From: Octopus vulgaris
Taxonomy: Eukaryota
NCBI GenBank assembly: GCA_951406725.2
Contig: OX597815.1
Coordinates: 210,180,001 to 210,244,000 of the forward strand
DNA length: 64,000 nt
Direction: 5' to 3'
In this document: piece after piece, positions 7,410 to 63,363 of the stretch
Numbering within the stretch: the stretch's first letter is position 1
Layout of the letters: every line of letters starts with the position of its first letter
The notes under the pieces: model-generated
Database searches by the model: none
Seen by the model: only the letters and a program-made list of their open reading frames with translations
Told to the model about the DNA's origin: nothing
Position numbers and translations under genes: made by a program

Positions 7410-7412
<3 letters not shown>

Positions 7413-7640
7413 GAGAGCTGGCAGAAACGTTAGCACGCCGGGCGAAACGCGTAGCCGTATTTCGTCTGCCGTTACGTTCTTTGTTCAAATTCCGCCGAGG
7501 TCGACTTTGCCTTTCATCCTTTCGGGGTCGATAAATTAAGTACCAGTTACGCACTGGGGTCGATGTAATCGACTTAATCCTTTTGTCTGTCCTTGTTTGT
7601 TCCCCTCTGTGTTTAGCGCCTTGTGGGTAGTAAAGAAATA
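7410..7640 (+). mobile_element. tRNA-like SINE family A, tail type 1
   Basis: Head GCGGAGAGCTGGCAGAAACGTTAGCAC, B-box-like GTTCAAATTCC, central GCCTTTCATCCTTTCGGGGTCGATAAATTAAGTACCAG, tail ending TAAAGAAATA. Inserted in a (TG)n tract. Confidence 0.9.
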
Positions 7641-10189: not shown

Positions 10190-10390
10190 TCAGGCACAAG
10201 GCCCGGTATTTCGAGGGAAGGGAGTAAACCCATTATTTCGACCCCAGTGTTCAACTGGTGCTGATTTTATGCACCTCCAAAGGATGAGAGGCAAAGTCGA
10301 CCTCTGTGGAGCTTGAACTCGGAATTTGAAAACGGACGGAATGCCGCTAAGCATTTCGCCCGGCATGCTAACGATTCTGCCAGCTCGCCA
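10190..10390 (-). mobile_element. SINE family A, tail type 2
   Basis: ggcaaagtcgacct...gcatttcgcccggcatgctaacgattctgccagctcgcc. Confidence 0.8.
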
Positions 10391-18210: not shown

Positions 18211-18441
18211 GGTGGGGAACTGGTAGAAACATTAGCACGCTGGGCGAAATGCTTAGCCGTATTTTGTCTGCCGCTACGTTCTGAGTTCAAATTCCACCGA
18301 GGTCGACTTTGCCTTTCATCCTTTCGGTGTCGATTAAATAAGTACCAGTTACACACTGGGGTCGATATAATCGACTTAATCCCTTTGTCTGTCCTTGTTT
18401 GCCCTCTCAGTGTTTAGCCCCTTGTTTGTAGTAAAGGAATA
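18211..18441 (+). mobile_element. SINE family A, tail type 1
   Basis: Matches the 7410 copy, including the TTTGTCTGTCCTTGTTTG tail. Confidence 0.85.
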
Positions 18442-18610
18442 GGTATTTTATCTGTCTTTATGTTCTGAGTTCAAATTCCGCCGAGGTCGACTTTGCCTTT
18501 CATCCCTTCAGGGTCAATAAATTAAGTACCAGTTGCGTACTGGGTTTGATCTAATCGACTGGCCACCTGCCCCAAAACTCCGAGCCTTGTGCCTGGAGTA
18601 GAAAAGAATA
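18442..18610 (+). mobile_element. 5'-truncated SINE family A, tail type 2, abutting the previous copy
   Basis: Repeats the B-box and central domain, then GCCTTGTGCCTGGAGTAGAAAAGAATA. Confidence 0.85.
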
Positions 18611-27513: not shown

Positions 27514-27739
27514 TGTTTTTTATTACCCACAAGGGGCTAAACATAGAGGGGACAAATAAAGACAAAGGGATTAAGTCGATTACATCGACCCCATTGCGTA
27601 ACTGGTACTTAATTTATCGACCCCGAAAGTATGAAAGGCAAAGTCGGCCTCAGCGGAATTTGAACTCAGAACGTAGCGGCGGACGAAATACCGCAAAGCA
27701 TTTCGCCCGGCGTGCTAACGGTTCTGCCAGCTCGCCGCC
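27514..27739 (-). mobile_element. SINE family A, tail type 1, with 16-bp TSD
   Basis: TTCTCATACTATTATT occurs at 27498-27513 and 27740-27755. Confidence 0.92.
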
Positions 27740-28507
27740 TTCTCATACTATTATTAGTCATCACATAAATGTGTTGCATGAAACGAACTTTAAAGCCTTT
27801 TTGCGCGGGCTCGATATACAATTTTGTGGCAAATATCCATTCCTTTGAACTTTGGATTTGTAAGCGAGCTCATTCAGGTGGTATTTATTATTCTGTGGAC
27901 ATAGCGACGAGTTTCTACAATTACCGTCTTTTGGGAGTAGGTTTATGTGTGGGAACATAATATTTAAAAGCATCTAACTTTGATGTGATATCTCGAAAGC
28001 GGAATGATTGCTTCATACTGTGATTTATGCGATGTTGTTCGTTTTAACTAGGTCATTATTTTTATTTATTTACTTATTCATTCATCTATTTACGTCCTTG
28101 AATATTGCAAGCCTCAAAGTTTACTTATCTGCTATTTTCTAATCCCACCCATCTTAATTCGTCCCCTTTTTTCTTATCCCTTTTTATTTCTTTTTCCTCT
28201 TTTTCGTTTCTGCTGTTCCTATTCATTTTGCTCTTCCATTTTTACTTTTCCCTATTTCTTTACTCTTTTCTTAATTTCTTTTCTTTTTCAACTTTTATCA
28301 TATCTTCTCTCTTTCTACTCAACTTCTGACTGAAGAAGCTATATATAAATGAGCAAATCCCATCAATGTTCAGTCATAAATTGCCTGAGGATCCTGTGCA
28401 CTCAAGGATGAAACTCGGAGCACCAAGAGTCAGAGCGCCTAAAATAATATGTTAATATCTACTATGATACCGTGTCATATTTGTGTCGACAGTTAACAGT
28501 AAATAGG

Positions 28508-29094: not shown

Positions 29095-30346
29095 TCAGGG
29101 TGAGTAAAAATTAAGCAACGTTTTGAAACATGAAATTCATCACAATATATTTCAACACCGCGGAAATTTTACTTATCACAATATATACCATTACAATCAA
29201 CAGATTTTTGCCAACGAGTTACTAGTTTGTTTATTCCGGTAACATAAATATTTGGAGTTCTCGAGGTGATGAACTCATTGAATGCACTTTCGGCATCGGT
29301 TTCATTTTTGAACTCCTTCTCTCGCAGGAAACCATCAAGATGCTTGAAAAATGATAGTCGGTAGGAGTAATGTCTGGGGAATCAGCTACCTGTGGAATAA
29401 CTTCCTAGTCAAGTTCCCTCAACTTCTGGAGCGTCATTAGTGAAATGTGTTCGCGCATTCTCATGAAGAATAATTGGCTCTCTACTGCTGACCAGTCTGG
29501 GACAGAGGAGTAGCGGTTTTTCGCTCATTTTCACAATGTTATTGCAATATATTTCTACAGTAATGTTTTTACCGGGTTTTAAGAAGTTATAGCGGTTGAG
29601 TCCAGCACTACACCAACAAATAGTCACCATAGTCACCGTTTTTCTGAAGAGCTTGAGTTTAAGGGAGGTTTTCGGTGCTTCATTTTCGTCCGACCACTGC
29701 GAAGAACGAATTTTATTATTGTACAGAACCCAGTTTTCACCGCATGTTACAATAAGGTCGAGAAATGTATCGGTCTGTTACGGAGAAAAGGCGACGATCA
29801 AATTTCATATCTGCGCATTTTCCGATTTTCATTCATTGTCGAACTATTTTGATTTTCTGATCGCATGTAAATGGTTGCAGGCAGTTTTCTGGCGCACATG
29901 AAGTTCTTTTGCCGGTTCTTGAGTGGTTTTACATGAATCTCTCTCAATGACGGTCTTTAATTGACCGTCACCGATGACAGATAAGCATCCACTACACTCA
30001 CGATCTTCAAGGCTTAGGTCTTCACTGCGAAATCGTTTGAACCATTTTCGAGCTGACCACTCACTGGTCATTTCCTCACCAAACGTTTTGTTGATATCGT
30101 GAGCAGTTTCAGCTGCTTTACATCTTAAGGTGAATAGCAAAATTGCTCGAATATCGCACTTTGACAGTTCAATTTCCGACGACTGGTGAAAAAATATCAA
30201 CGTTAATTTATTGATGCATTTGGACAAGTCTATGTCTGTATTATCAGTCAATTGCAAAACAAATGTTTTAAAAAATTTCAAAACTGCAAAACTCCGGTAC
30301 AAATTCTTCATAGTTCAAGACGTTGCTTTCGTTTTACTCAATCTGA
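29095..30346 (-). mobile_element. Decayed near-full-length mariner transposon (~1.25 kb)
   Basis: Imperfect TIRs TCAGGGTGAGTAAAAATTAAGCAACG / CGTTGCTTTCGTTTTACTCAATCTGA with TA on both sides; transposase remnants inside. Confidence 0.9.
29170..30165 (-). pseudogene. Mariner transposase pseudogene
   Basis: HTH region AAETAHDINKTFGEE..ARKWFKRFRSEDLSLED; degenerate catalytic motifs IVTCGENW, ILHENAR and SPDITPTDYH; multiple frameshifts. Confidence 0.85.
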
Positions 30347-36111: not shown

Positions 36112-36468
36112 CTCTTTTACTCTTTTACTTGATTCAGTCATTTGACTGCGGCCATGCTGGAGCACCGCCTTTAGTCGAGCAAATCGACCCCGGGACTTAT
36201 TCTTTGTAAGTCCAGTACTTATTCTATCGGTCTCTTTTCCCGAACCGCTAAGTTATGGGGACGTAAACACACCAGCATCGGTTGTCAAGCAATGCTAAGG
36301 GGACAAACACACACACACACATATATACGATGGGCTTCTTTCAGTTTCCGTCTACCAAATCCACTCACAAAGCATTGGTCGACCCGGGGCTATAGCAGAA
36401 GACATTCGCCCAAGATGCCACGTAGTGGGACTGAACCCGGAACCATGTGGTTGGTTAGCAAGCTACTT
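36112..36468 (-). mobile_element. SINE family B body, split by the LINE insertion
   Basis: The SINE consensus breaks at ...GCAAGCTACTT and resumes at 41909-41946. Confidence 0.92.
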
Positions 36469-36720
36469 TATTTCATATAATTTGCCATTTAGGCATTTAC
36501 AAAGAGGGGACAAACAAGGACAGACAAATATAAAGGGTGAAGTAGCTTAACACAGTTACAATTTTCGAATGAAATTACGGATAAGATTATAAACAATGAA
36601 TTTTACGAAGGCAATGTTTAAAAATATTAATGATCATGTCGAAGGACGGACACCCAGCCATCCGGGTAGAACCTTTACTTTCTGATCCGGTCACACTTAC
36701 CTGGTGCCAAACATACCCAT

Positions 36721-39700
36721 CTAGTATGCCACAGGCTTCCATCTTTTCACAAACATATCTCGTGACAGACACCTCTTCTCCAGCCTTATTTTGCTACTGA
36801 GGTGGTAACTAAAAAAGTTAATCAACCCCTGGCCGGAGACAAAGGTGCCTGTCACTATACCTTTCGTACGCGTCTTCCATACTGTTTCTTTCAGTATGGC
36901 TACTACACAGAAAAAACAAGCCTTTCTTTCCCTGTTAAGGAAAGGGGGCGGCACAATCTCGATGATAGACTCAGCTGATAGCTGTATTCTTCCCATCACT
37001 GACAACAGTTGTTCAACAAAAGCTATCAGTCCCGATAACTCCGGACACTCCACGAATGCGTGCAAGACGGTCTCCCTATCCTGCTCACATCGCGGGCATG
37101 TCGGCGAGACGGCACTACCGTGCCTTGACAGCTTGTCGCGAACAGGTAAAGCCGCACAGAAACACTGCCAGGCCAAGGATTTCTGGTAATTATCCAGATA
37201 CCCCGGCCCGAACGTCCTTCGGAACAGGTTGACCAACTGATTTTCATCGTAGCCCAGGGTCTCCCCCAAGGCGTCTTCGGACTTAATCTCCACTAACCCG
37301 CTATAGAAATCCGTGGTGGAACTCCTGTTGCCGGCGTTGCCCACCCGAGATAGTAGCTGGAGCGCCTGACGGCACTCCAAATGCCATTCACTCAGTTTAG
37401 GTCTCCGCTTGATCCATGCACCGATGTCCGTTAGGGATGTTAACTGGGGAAGGTAGAACCGGACGTGCGGCGACCACACCTGCTCTCCATCCAGGTAAAG
37501 CCAGAGGTGCTTCAACCTTAACGCGAGTTTTCGCATCCTCAGCCAAGGCATCCCTAGCCCACCCTTTAGCGGTTTCTGGCAGCAGACAGAGCGCTTTACA
37601 AGTGGCTTTCCTCCTTTCCACAAAAATCGGAAAAGGATTCTCTCCAACTTGTTCAGCCACAAATCGGGGCAAGGCACCACGGTCAGACGGTAGGTGATTA
37701 CTGATGCTATAAACATCTGCACCACCTCCGCCTTCCCTAGCAGGGATAACGCCCGCCCAGACCAGGTCTGGGTTAGAGCGGTCACCTTGTTGGCCACCTC
37801 ACTCCAATTTTTCTCAATCTGGAGGTGTGGCCCGAACCAGACTCCGAAAAGCTTAACAGGACCTTCCGTCCAACGCCCTACGACGTTATTGGACGGCATC
37901 GGCTTGCCCCTCCAGGTGCCGAGTTGCAAACCGACCGACTTGTCCTTGTTAACCTTTGCTCCTGCCACCGCCTCGTAGCTTTTGATGGCCTCTTCCACCA
38001 CTGGAAGCTGGCCTTCGTCTGCCACGATGATGGAGGTGTCATCCACATACGCCGTAGCTCCTCTTCCACACCATAGATCATGCGGCGCGCCCCCTAGTGC
38101 CTCCAACTTCCGCAGCAAAGGCTCAAGAGCCAATACGTATAGGAGCGAGGACAGGGGACACCCTTGACGAACTGAACGCTCGATCCTGAACGGCTTCGAA
38201 AAGGAACCGTTCACCTTGACTACAGACTCGATGTCGCTATACAAAGCAGCGATCCAACCTCGAAAGGTCGGGCCTAGGCCAGCCTCTCCGAGGACCGCCG
38301 CCAGGTACCGATGGTCGACCCTATCAAATGCTTTGGACTGGTCTAAATGTACCAGTGCTCCCCCTGCGCCAGAAAGCTCCCCACCCTCTCTAAGGAGTAG
38401 CGTATAAGGTGGAGATTGTCGTGGATCGTTCTGCCGGGGATAGCACACGTTTGCGCTTCCCCGACAAGTTTGTCCACGACCCGCGCCAACCTTTTTGCTA
38501 GCACCTTGGCCAGAATCTTTAACTCTGTGTTTAACAGAGTTATGGGCCTGAAGTTCCCTATCTCGTCCCCCTTGTTCGGGTCCTTCCTGATCAACGTCAC
38601 CGCCCCTCGGCTCGCAGACTTGGGAATTCTCCCATTCTGCTGCCAGTTGGCGTAGACGGTAGCCAGCAGGTGCCCGAACAAGTCTGGCATACTTCTATAA
38701 AATTCATAGGGCCGACCATCGAGACCCGGCGACTTCTCCCCGGGGCACTTGCCCAACACCTCGATTACTTCCTCGGCTGTGATTGGCCCTTCACAGCACT
38801 CAGCCTCTCGTGTCGAGAGGCGCGGGCCACCAGACAGGAAGTCCCTAAGGGCCTCACCATGATCCAGCGTCCCGCACATCCCGAACAACTCGGCGAAGTG
38901 CTTGTGAAGTGCCTCACACATCTCGTCCCAGTTCTTGATCGTACATCCGTTTTCATCAACAAGAGACCCAATTGTGGCATCGTTTCCACGCTGTGTTTCT
39001 ATCGTACGGGCCCATCCGGCAACATTAATTCCCTCACGGCCCAATGCTCGTACTTTAGCCCGGACTCTACATCCCTCATGTTTGGTTTTCAGGTGACGGT
39101 CTAATGCCGTTCTCGCCGCTAAAATGTGAGATGCAGAGCCCAACCTCAACGCCTCCTCTAAGTTCTTAACTAGTTGCCCTTCTATTCTAGCCCTATCTAG
39201 TCTTAGTTGTTTACTAAATCTAATGGACTCGAATCGAATGGCTCTTTTGAGGGTGAACCACCACCGGTTATTAACCACGGCTCCGGTTAACGACCTCTGC
39301 ACTAACACCTTAATCCGGCTACGGTATGCCTCGCGTGTCAAAATAGACTTGTTCAGCTTCCAGTAGCCGGTTCCTATCTTAAGTGTGCTATCTATGTCCA
39401 GTCTACACGTGACCATTCTATGGTCAGTATAGGGCACCTGGACGAGCTGTGGACAACTAAAACTAGACTTATCTCTAGTTCTTATCACTATCCTGTCTAG
39501 ATAAGACTTGAACTTTCCGTCGCCACTCATCCAGGTCCACTCTGGGACGTTCGGATGGTCAAGTCTGTAACGATCTGCTAGCTGAAACCGCTTAAGCAGA
39601 TCCACGAGACGTGAGTTCACTTTCCTATTGATCGAGCCAACGCTATCGATGTGTACGTCAACGATAGCATTAAAGTCCCCTAATATCACTAAAGTCTTCG

Positions 39701-40097
39701 ACGTCACGAGAAAGCCCTCTAGGCGCCGATAAAAATCAGTTTGGAGACCTCTAGCACAAGGTGCATAGAGTCCGATCAACCTGAAGGCCTTACTGCTGTA
39801 TGTCACATCAAGGACGACCAGCCCACCTTCTGGGTCTACATAGACTGTACTTGTCTGTAGAGCCAAGTCTTTACGGATCAGTACCACTACGCCCCCTCGC
39901 CCTCCGGTCTGGCCAGGAGACATGATTTTCTCGTAGCCATTCAGGAGAGGCGAGAAGGTTTGTAGGCTGTCCAGCTTGGTCTCTGTAGCAACCATCACAT
40001 GTATATCACGTGATCTGAGGTCGTCGAGGAAACAAGCCTGCTTCCACTTCGAACTCAGACCACGCACATTTAAACAACCAAGGTTAAGCGAAGCCAT
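36721..40097 (-). pseudogene. Tx1-like ORF2 (APE endonuclease + reverse transcriptase), one frameshift near 38375
   Basis: APE motifs LNVRGL, ILGDFN, SYLDRI and TDH. RT motifs KSPGLDG, FRPITLLN, LDQSKAFDRV, RQGCPLS and YVDD. C-terminal CPRC..ETVLHAFVEC. Split across ORFs 38343-40097 and 36721-38448. Confidence 0.93.
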
Positions 40098-40114
40098 TAC
40101 AAAAAGTAAAAGTT

Positions 40115-41519
40115 CTATTTACATTTCGTTGGAGAGGAGGGGGCCGACCTCACCACACGTTTGTGGGCCCCTTCTTTCTCCTCTTTCTTCAGATAGTCCG
40201 GCAAGTTTGCGATATGCCGGATGGCGTTTGGGTGTCTGTCTTTTAATTGTTTGAACGTTGTTTCCGCAATCCACGCGTGTCTATTTCGATCTTTGTATTT
40301 GTTGTACAGTCTTGCTGACTGATGCTGAACCACAATATCGTTTATGTATTTGTCTTGTGTGTCGAATTCAATTAATATGAGTTCATTTTCATTTTTGTCT
40401 TCTTTTTCTGGCCCAGTTGAGCGGGATTTTTTTTTTCCGTGTCTGTGGTGTGTCTTTGTTTTTATTATTTTTTGTAGGGGATGTGGACGGGGATGCTGCA
40501 CGAATTCTTTTACGAACTGGTGTAAATCCCCCCTCTGATACCTCCATGGTATCGTCTTGGGTAGCAATAGTTTGTTCGGTAGGCGCCGCAGTTTTTAGGG
40601 GGGTGGGAGGTTTTAATAGTGTAGGGGTTTGTGAGTGCGAGGGCTGGTTTTTTCTTCAGTCTGTTTTGGGGTTGGCACCGTAACAGCAGGAGTGTGATTT
40701 TTTGTTTTTGTAGGGGTAGGTGTGTTTGTAAGGGTAGGGACTTTTTTATTATCTGAGGGGCCTGGTGTCTGCGGTTTCTTTTGCTTGTCTGGACAGTCTA
40801 CACGAATGTGGCCCTTTTTGCCTCAGGCGTAACAGGTGGGTTTTCGGCCTTCGACCTGTACCCTGAGGGCTACGTTCTCGCCCACGAGCACCCTCTCAGG
40901 AAGGAGCTGCAGGTCCTCCGCTGTTCCTTGAATTAATATATTAATGTTACGCCCTAGCCAAAATCGAGGGGTAGAGCATGTTACTTCTAGTATTTTTATT
41001 TTGTCCGCCCTTTTATATAACAGGGCGGCCACTACATCTACCGGATCTACTTCCGGCGGGGCTTCTACAATCCTGACCCGGGACGTCCTGCGTCCCCTAT
41101 AGCTTAGGAAAAGTACCACCTCCTTGGTTTTTAGGGGGTTCACAGAATGCCCGCGGGCCATTTCTTCCTCCGAGAAGCGGACATCCACAGTGCCATATGC
41201 CCGTCCCCTGGCGACGTACACGATGTCCTTCCAAATTGGGGACAGGCATTTCTCGATGGTGCTTTTTTCAAAGTGTTTGAACCTTCTGCTTTGTGGACAG
41301 AAAGTTTTAAACACTACGGTCCGCTTCTCGGTCTCCACGATACTGGCGGAGGGTGATATTTTAACATCACCACCCTCCTCTTGCATTCTTTTAAATAGCT
41401 CGACGAGCTGATTGACATCGATGTCAATGTTCTCGGTAGCCACTGCGGCTACCTCAGAAAATTTTTTAACATTTGCTCTCCTCAAGAGCACTACTTTCGA
41501 GAATAATTTCAACAGACAT
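40115..41519 (-). pseudogene. Tx1-like ORF1 (gag-like, CCHC knuckle), disrupted
   Basis: ...KPTCYA*GKKGHIRVDC, with TGA (40823-40825) in place of the second Cys. Probable ATG at 41519 followed by an early frameshift; the C-terminal part is in ORF 40115-40567. Confidence 0.8.
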
Positions 41520-41908
41520 TATTCTGTTGAAATTAGACAACACAAAAATTACGAATATTGGTTTCCCACAAAACTGGGAAACCTATAGAAAGTTTTTCTT
41601 CCAAAGTAGTTCAAAAAAGCAGTTCAAAAATTCCAATTCCCACCCCCATTCGGGGGAGGGGCACGAAAATAGTCTGACAGGACTATATATAGTCACGTAA
41701 ATAAAAAGCCACAATGGCTAACAGTTCAACGGTAAGAAATTATCCAATTATTCCCCGGTAAAACCGGAGAACAAGACAGTTCAGCAACGTTTAAAGACAA
41801 ATTTTCAGTAGTAGGAATTCAACAATTAACAACACAGCAAAATTCTTACCGGGAAGAAAACGCGTCCAAACCGAAGTACGGTAAGCAAAGTCACTCTTCA
41901 GTCAGTGA

Positions 41909-41946
41909 GGTTAGCAAGCTACTTACCATACAGCCACTCCTGCGCC
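41909..41946 (-). mobile_element. 5' head of the interrupted SINE family B copy
   Basis: GGTTAGCAAGCTACTTACCATACAGCCACTCCTGCGCC. Confidence 0.9.
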
Positions 41947-42018: not shown

Positions 42019-42378
<360 letters not shown>

Positions 42379-42466
42379 AATTTCCTCTATTTACATAATA
42401 TTGAGGTCTCTTTCTTTCTTTTGTTATCTTACCGTTTTATCAATATATATATATATATATATATAT

Positions 42467-44396: not shown

Positions 44397-44976
<580 letters not shown>

Positions 44977-50500: not shown

Positions 50501-50929
50501 TTACTCTTTTACTCTTTTACTTGTTTCAGTCATTTGACTGTGGACATGCTGGAGCACTGCCTTTAGTCAAGCACATCGACCCCATGACTTATTCATTGTA
50601 AGCCTAGTACTTATTCTATCGGTCTCTATCGGTCTCTTGCCGAACCGCTAGTTTACGGGGACGTAAACACACCAGCATCGGTTGCCAATCGATGTTGGGG
50701 GGACAAACACAGACACACAAACATATACACACACATACATATTTTTTATATATATATACATATATACGATGGGCTTCTTTCAGTTTCCGCCTACCAAATC
50801 CACTCAGAAGGCTTCGATCGAGCCGAGGCTATAGTAGAAGACACTTGCCCAAAGTGCCATGCAGTGGGACTGAACCCGGAATCATGTGGTTGGTAAGCAA
50901 GCTACTTACCACACAGCTACTCCTGCGCC
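50501..50929 (-). mobile_element. SINE family B, full length
   Basis: Matches the 44397 copy. Confidence 0.9.
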
Positions 50930-61605: not shown

Positions 61606-63259
61606 CCGCATCTAGTCATCCCAAATTTTAAGCCACTACAACCGTCTCTAAAAACAACGAAAGAAGCTCATTCAAATGAAAAATTCGATTGACTTGAGAG
61701 GTGCACACTTACTTGGAGCAAACAGAAGACACCGCTATCATATTTATTACATCTTCAATGATCTCCCAAAGTAAAATCTACGGAAGTAAGTATTTTATTA
61801 CAGCTACATTTTCAGAGCTATCCACTTTACAGTATTTCAGGCGGGGGAAATTGCACAAACAGAAATAGCTATACCATTACTATGCGAAAAAGGTTTTCTG
61901 AACTATACACAAGAAGTGCCATGGTGAGACATGAGTACTGTTTGCGAAAGATTTTCAGATGCTGGTGTGCAAGTGAAATAGGGTACACTTAGGTGTTAAT
62001 TAACAACGAAATCACGCACAGAGGAATATCAAACTGTTATACGCGAATCGTATCATGCTCACCTAATACTGTTGTGGGTAGGTTGTCATGTATACCGACT
62101 TACAAGCCTCATGCATTCACAATTGGCATTGAATTTATGTGATTTTATTGTGTTAGCAGCCCAGACCATCCTTATATAAAATACGTCCAATATCATTCAA
62201 AGGAACACGTCGGGTAGTCCGCGGCCAATATACGCATAGAGAAATTGATCATTGATCAATTGTCTTTTATGAGAAGATATTTTTCGACCAACAAACAGCT
62301 GGCGACTGGCATACAATAAAAGACTGTGTGCAAGAGGAAAAGCGACTCAGGCAGACATTCACATGCATTTCTTAAAAACTATGATACGACGTTCCATGTA
62401 AAACTTATGATTTACATATTTACATAAGACTCTTAAAGACAGATGTCTTTAAATGCTGAATATTAGTTCTCTTATGATATGTAATTTGCTATCAAATTAT
62501 CTAGTCTCCATAGGTGTACTCAGCCACACAAATTGGTACGAAATAAAATCATGTTTCCAGTCTTCTCCGTACAGCATGTCAACAAATTCTTCTAGGCCTC
62601 CGAATTATTGCTTATTAAATAACCTTCAAGTTTGCACTGTGCACCGTATTAACTTTTCACTTGGACTGGTTTTTGATATTGTGCATCATCATCTTTTAAA
62701 ATCTTTCATGGCCTACCAGCAGGCTGAGACACTAATGTCTCCATGTATTTGCCGGTGATCTCATAAAATTGCTTCTTAAACATTTACATGTATCTTACAT
62801 TTCAAACATGCAAATCTGACCCTTGTTTCTCAACATGCACTTCACAACTTACACATTCATACCTTATTGGTTGACGTGTGCGTACTTATAATAAAGCTTG
62901 TGCTTCAGTTCATAAACATAGTGTGTACGATGGCTGTCCGCGCAATATCTATCAAGCCAATTCTTCGCAGATATTCTGTGGCCGAAGGAATTTCGTATAA
63001 TACACATTCCTATAGAAGTGAAGAATTGTATCCAATGGCTAAATTTGTCATGTATATGCATCCATGTATGTATGTTTATACTTATTTGTGTATGTCTGTG
63101 TGTGTGTGTATGTATATAAATCTATGAATATGTGTATGTGTAAATGAATTTGCATGTGAAATCATATATATGGACATATATATAGATGTACTCATATACG
63201 GGTATACACTAAACCCCTACATATATATATATATGCACACATACACACACATACTCACG

Positions 63260-63363
<104 letters not shown>

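Follow-up and report, generated by a model that had tools for sequence, protein, structure and literature searches.

The 64,000-nucleotide stretch of Octopus vulgaris contig OX597815.1 analysed here (the window) contains a full-length LINE and copies of an abundant SINE that carry nearly the same sequence close to their 3' ends, and the question it raises is whether the one has mobilised the other. A common tail is the textbook link between a SINE and its LINE partner, and a first-pass annotation of the window proposed that this LINE family, or a close relative, recognises a structured 3' tail and moves the SINE. Our contention is that the close relative is the better candidate. The last 58 bases of the SINE (SINE A) are common to a site-specific lineage of L1-group LINEs, and sequence comparison suggests that SINE A was mobilised by the ORF2 of LINEs that are related to the window LINE but older, above all those of a family that we call FG, and not by the window LINE's own family, F1; we put the probability of this reading at about two in three. 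The tail homology, the target of each family, the mismatch between targets, the tree and the relative ages that enter into it are direct observations.

Table 1. Features of the window that bear on the relationship between the LINE and the SINEs.
Feature	Position	Strand	Remark
SINE A, tail type 1	7411..7640	plus	Embedded in (GT)n; block spans 7582-7608
SINE A, tail type 1	18211..18441	plus	Ends at site G of next headless unit
Headless SINE unit	18442 to about 18590	plus	Follows the 18211 copy; another tail
SINE A, tail type 1	27514..27740	minus	Deletion in block; 16-bp TSD
Host SINE B, 3' part	36117..36468	minus	End approximate
3' copy of apparent 16-bp TSD	36453..36468	minus	Target site in SINE B head
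Full-length L1-group (Tx1-like) LINE, family F1	36469..41908	minus	Junctions read; young, site-specific; window copy broken
Tail hairpin	36483..36495	minus	Predicted 4-bp stem, 5-nt loop, then A-rich end; register matches SINE A and relatives
26-nt pyrimidine-rich block	36503..36528	minus	Identical to SINE A majority tail; predicted mostly unpaired
F1 ORF2 in two frames	36721..40118	minus	AP endonuclease, reverse transcriptase, zf-RVT (Pfam)
F1 ORF1 in pieces, gag-like	40115..41518	minus	CCHC knuckle interrupted by stop in window copy
5' copy of apparent 16-bp TSD	41909..41924	minus	Last 2-7 nt probably LINE-borne
Host SINE B head, 5' part	41909..41946	minus	

The LINE belongs to the L1 group, having an N-terminal AP endonuclease, a reverse transcriptase and a C-terminal zinc motif, and the closest solved protein to its ORF2 is human LINE-1 ORF2 (E 4e-38, against 0.003 for R2). 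ORF1 gave no Pfam match. A CCHC zinc knuckle in ORF1 is a feature of the Tx1 clade, and the knuckle is whole in all three other F1 copies examined; sequence-specific insertion into repeats, transposons and microsatellites, a further trait of that clade, is displayed by the LINE families described here. It is on architecture and site specificity that our label 'Tx1-like' rests. Look-ups in a protein atlas and in protein clusters returned no clade name for F1, its best named relative is from Argonauta (56%), and the reverse transcriptase trees comprised unlabelled relatives and one Argonauta protein, without labelled Tx1 elements (Tx1L, Keno, Kibi, Koshi). Other full-length F1 copies are 97.8-98.8% identical at 14 of 15 loci and 92.6% identical at one, and the genome holds 114 exact F1 3' ends. 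On expression, no RNA data set was listed as holding the element, and contigs from four runs cover the LINE 3' UTR, none bridging the junction by 31 letters.

The near-identity of the block in LINE and SINE, as first reported, was confirmed. Positions 36503-36528 (minus) align with 7582-7608 over 31 nt at 93.5% (E 5e-7), the difference being one inserted T, and the LINE block agrees at 26/26 positions with the majority built from 52 sampled SINE A tails of type 1. Chance is ruled out as its origin, since 2000 shuffles of the LINE 3' UTR gave no match better than 19/26, as is a private SINE fragment in the window LINE, the block being present with at most one mismatch in 44 of 44 distinct LINE 3' ends. 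It is also correct that neither element has a poly(A) tail and that GAAATA terminates both. The claim that the same tail recurs at 18211 and 27514 needs qualification: the former matches at 23/26 and its tail is internal, and the latter has lost part of the block. Over the terminal 40 nt, F1 and SINE A agree at 25 positions.

F1 is strictly site-specific, which the first-pass annotation overlooked. Genome-wide, 104 of the 114 exact 3' ends run directly into one site in the head of another SINE, SINE B, with 7 of its bases exact, and the target is the same whether or not the query includes flank bases; among distinct flanks, 33/33 on the 3' side and 29/30 on the 5' side lie at this one position of the SINE B head or on a neighbour stacked there. 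The 16-bp TSD originally ascribed both to the LINE and to the SINE at 27514 stands for the SINE. For the LINE it is probably in part the element's own 5' end, because in 8/8 full-length copies with a target unlike the window's (the informative ones among 14 copies with both junctions) the 5' junction retains TAACC and agrees with the 3' side over no more than 9-14 nt. Tandem stacks occur at the SINE B head, made up of F1 itself and of three ORF1-only passengers. Within SINE B, after its microsatellite, there is also a stretch with 5-7 mismatches to the 26-nt block (about 36295-36325 on the minus strand, 44600-44632 and 50695-50725), which is possibly the relic tail of a left monomer.

The insertion sites of SINE A follow another pattern. 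Our sample of 52 tail-1 copies came from the window and from segments spaced evenly over the genome, 600 kb in all; tail-1 density was about 82 copies per Mb, and the copies are 94% identical to their majority. None of the 52 lies at the SINE B site. The SINE A tail followed by 10 nt of F1's target occurs nowhere in the genome, even though 600 kb contain 27 exact SINE B heads, while the tail followed by 10 nt of an internal site of SINE A itself, site G, occurs 31,872 times. These junctions are not independent, many of them joining the units of tandem arrays. When head subfamilies were compared to tell homing from the amplification of multimers, 10 mixed arrays were seen, and the arrays may have arisen in either way. 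Nineteen of the 52 sampled junctions enter another SINE A unit (16 at site G and 3 at a second internal site, site A), and the other 33 are terminal. Among the terminal junctions, 10 start with G[GA]TA (background <1%, p 5e-13) and 26, by hand count, with NRTA; AA begins only four, and a T|AA start is not confirmed as a signature common to LINE and SINE duplications. TATA follows 12 of the 52 copies, and none of the 52 junctions falls in a TATC or ATT tract or at the Mariner site described below. Outside TA tracts the SINE A TSD has a median length of 16 (range 9-25, n=13).

In its general features SINE A recalls older descriptions of octopus SINEs. Ohshima and Okada are said to have described the tRNA-derived families OK, OR1 and OR2 in 1994; like the SINEs here these are abundant with a conserved core, and they are tRNA-like, as the present SINEs may be, a likeness by description that ties none of the names to SINE A or SINE B. 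The head of the SINE is putatively tRNA-like: ARAGORN found no tRNA in it and Rfam gave no tRNA match, and motifs seen by eye resemble A and B boxes. Copies of SINE A with at least two further tails, which look older and often precede ATT repeats, are also present (in the window at 10218-10389 and 18442-18590), and such copies likely had a different partner. In some SINE A arrays the units have private variants in common, which suggests that they were duplicated locally or copied repeatedly from a single RNA.

FG is a LINE family related to F1, but older, which inserts at site G of SINE A. A query without the tail retrieved at least 1000 FG candidates, and among 39 other top copies examined 35 end at site G (25 by script, 10 by reading), one ends at a short GGTAT and three have lost the tail. 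The FG TSD is about 15-16 bp in the one copy with both ends. FG tails are 92% identical to the FG majority, close to the 94% of SINE A, while F1 copies are mostly at 98-99%. The tree places F1, FG (one copy, on a long branch) and the older relatives in one clade (support 100/99), to which the microsatellite-targeting families do not belong. When the last 32 nt are compared with F1 and with 28 FG tails, FG is the nearer for 52/52 SINE A copies, and over the terminal 40 nt the FG majority matches SINE A at 31 positions, 19 older relatives at 29-35 and F1 at 25. An older TATC-targeting subfamily does about as well as FG (32-33). Across the whole tail of 58-62 nt F1 is as good a match as FG (18 against 16), because only F1 has the full block, the 5' part of which is exact between F1 and SINE A and missing from FG; FG ends also depart from those of SINE A at the final base and in the loop most often seen. 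As a pair, then, SINE A and F1 differ in target and TSD signature and in time of activity (98-99% against 94% in sampled SINE A), whereas SINE A and FG agree in 3' terminal sequence (31/40, the upstream block not being common to them), target, TSD length and age.

The same type of tail extends well beyond F1 and FG. It is found in families targeting (TATC)n, (ATT)n, the start of the Mariner coding region, and sites A and G of SINE A, so that Tx1-like families with six different targets, and four ORF1-only passengers, have in common a predicted 4-bp hairpin and, after it, an A-rich end that lacks poly(A). It is because the hairpin tail has this span that we derive the tail of SINE A from the L1-group lineage. 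The ORF1-only passengers have divergent bodies but the hairpin tail and target of their LINE. Three of them, of 1.5-2.3 kb, are stacked at F1's SINE B site with similar hairpin tails; the fourth has two target classes, site A of SINE A or (GT)n, and site A is also used by two older LINE copies. Bao and Jurka reportedly described HAL1 in 2010 as half-L1 elements, ORF1-only, non-autonomous relatives of an L1-group LINE. Both systems are ORF1-only, but the four such families in the octopus share insertion site and hairpin tail with LINEs that are site-specific. As for the LINEs themselves, the young ATT-targeting family has many open ORF2 frames of 1145 aa and forms long head-to-tail arrays, some filling small contigs. 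An older subgroup ends at the Mariner coding start, and the window contains a member of that Mariner family at 29844-30314 (82% over 327 nt; HTH_48).

Whether the tail is structured, as the first reading had it, is less easily settled. A hairpin is predicted, but it lies outside the block that had been flagged, in a part of the tail that had been treated as unlike. Across 21 tails it is paired in 88.8% of cells, and two pairs show two-sided change; its covariation of 0.224 was reached by 2 of 500 shuffles, with slid controls at most 0.077, a value that derives from related rows and only three cells with two-sided change. RNAalifold predicted no consensus pair in the tails, and against shuffles only F1 folds better (z-scores of -2.0 for F1, 0.2 for the SINE, -0.9 for FG and -0.6 for a passenger). 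With pairing and covariation in its favour, and RNAalifold and the z-scores giving no support, the hairpin is plausible as a real structure but not proven.

In proposing a mechanism we need to explain how SINE A could follow the site of one LINE family loosely, avoid that of another entirely, and still share an exact block with the latter. ORF2 of this lineage would recognise the short terminal stem-loop and A-rich end in place of poly(A). Reverse transcription would then be primed at the nick, following the target-primed reverse transcription model as given in the portions of PMC4176376 and PMC4494074 available to us. The endonuclease would set the target, with SINE passengers following it more loosely, as the NRTA junctions, including GGTA, GATA and TATA, suggest. 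That SINE A uses the site of FG in this loose way, and never that of F1, makes an FG-type relative its likely mobiliser. Less firmly, the exact 26-nt block could reflect a recent exchange of F1's ancestor with SINE A, or a donor common to both, and the SINE A tail would on that account be a mosaic relative to the families seen. A more extended scenario, which we hold to be conceivable but would not favour, has a Tx1-like lineage keeping a constant, poly(A)-free stem-loop tail while its endonuclease radiated to at least six targets; one branch would have spread a SINE of about 200,000 copies and landed in that same SINE, and tails would have been exchanged, the block being taken by the LINE from the SINE.

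The exactness of the block does invite a different account, in which the main driver was an extinct or unsampled member of the lineage bearing the whole 58-nt tail, for instance F1's direct ancestor before a target switch, and FG merely shares the site. This would explain block and hairpin together, F1 is sister to a group with SINE-like hairpins, and our searches scored only the best 40-90 candidates. We nevertheless think it unlikely: FG, with its abundance of candidates, fits SINE A in both age and site, and among the candidates scored none was a LINE bearing the whole tail. In searches for a LINE with the full SINE tail, the best 30 of 258 matches and four more were SINE mutants or truncations, as were the 24 of 47 site-A matches and 24 of 330 site-G matches examined; a further search for the exact tail gave four matches, all SINE-type, and a SINE-type end on the F1 UTR gave none. 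Another set of 15 site-A matches comprised 14 of SINE type and one LINE tail. We see still less reason to suppose that several families (FG, the site-A relatives and the microsatellite-targeting LINEs) each moved a part of SINE A, its hairpin being read loosely across the lineage, although such an account is compatible with a role for FG. SINE A junctions do fall into classes (site G, site A, TATA and other), site A is used by both an ORF1-only element and LINE copies, and the tails of all families are alike; against this, one relaxed NRTA preference covers most terminal junctions, and the tracts and the Mariner site favoured by other families hold no sampled copy. That F1 itself moves or moved SINE A, with its specificity lost in trans, is scarcely credible and largely refuted, for although it alone has the block at 26/26, ends in the same six bases, and gives a junction that reads NRTA when shifted by one base, no SINE A tail lies at its site, its own ORF1-only passengers stay there, its exact ends number about 114, the family is younger than SINE A, and its terminal hairpin is the least like that of SINE A.

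Mobilisation by FG-type relatives, if correct, would place the octopus among a small number of precedents. Ohshima (2013; PMC3747384), in the sections accessible to us, treats L1-group LINEs as an exception that rarely have tails shared with SINEs, lists three L1-tailed SINEs in plants and an alga, and poses as an open question what the ancestral L1 recognised, a specific tail or poly(A). Its tail pairs, such as ZmSINE2/LINE1-1_ZM in maize and SINEX-3_CR/L1-1_CR in Chlamydomonas, are of the L1 clade, and in that text none is Tx1 or animal; the Chlamydomonas pair ends in poly(A), and no site specificity is given for the maize and algal pairs, unlike the octopus lineage. An animal L1-group lineage with a common, poly(A)-free tail bears on the ancestral question. 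The stringent L2 LINEs UnaL2, ZfL2-1 and ZfL2-2 have an ORF2 that recognises a short 3' stem-loop, the stem being general and the loop specific, according to the available part of PMC4176376; there the clade is L2 and recognition was tested experimentally, whereas the octopus case is a predicted 4-bp stem.

The nearest analogue is that of Kojima (2015; PMC4494074), where, as far as the accessible text goes, SINEU was linked to Tx1-Mar of crocodilians by their common target and no LINE with the SINEU 3' end was found. In both cases Tx1 or Tx1-like LINEs target another transposon, the partner is inferred from the target, and insertions stack in tandem; a Mariner site is involved too, in one lineage here, and the Mariner-targeting LINE subgroup of the octopus parallels Tx1-Mar. 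SINEU differs in its snRNA heads and poly(A), while the octopus elements have a common tail without poly(A) and targets that include SINEs, one of them the passenger itself. Neither full-text searches of openly accessible papers nor the accessible parts of PMC13282606, PMC4824008, PMC4758252, PMC10294476, PMC7245038, PMC3531059, PMC8967140 and PMC11203168 revealed a SINE paired by its tail with a Tx1 LINE, or any partner for a SINE of octopus. Tail pairing itself is known; what the window adds is an exact block in a LINE family whose target and age do not fit the SINE. The best sequence match to a SINE tail may thus indicate the wrong partner unless targets are checked. A likely driver is also proposed for a SINE expansion that ranks among the largest in the octopus genome, and close relatives with one type of tail and different targets offer a means of studying RNA recognition separately from DNA targeting. 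Elsewhere in the window there are inverted repeats, namely a self-complementary match at 63050-63350 and an apparent inverted duplication upstream of the LINE at 42160-42400.
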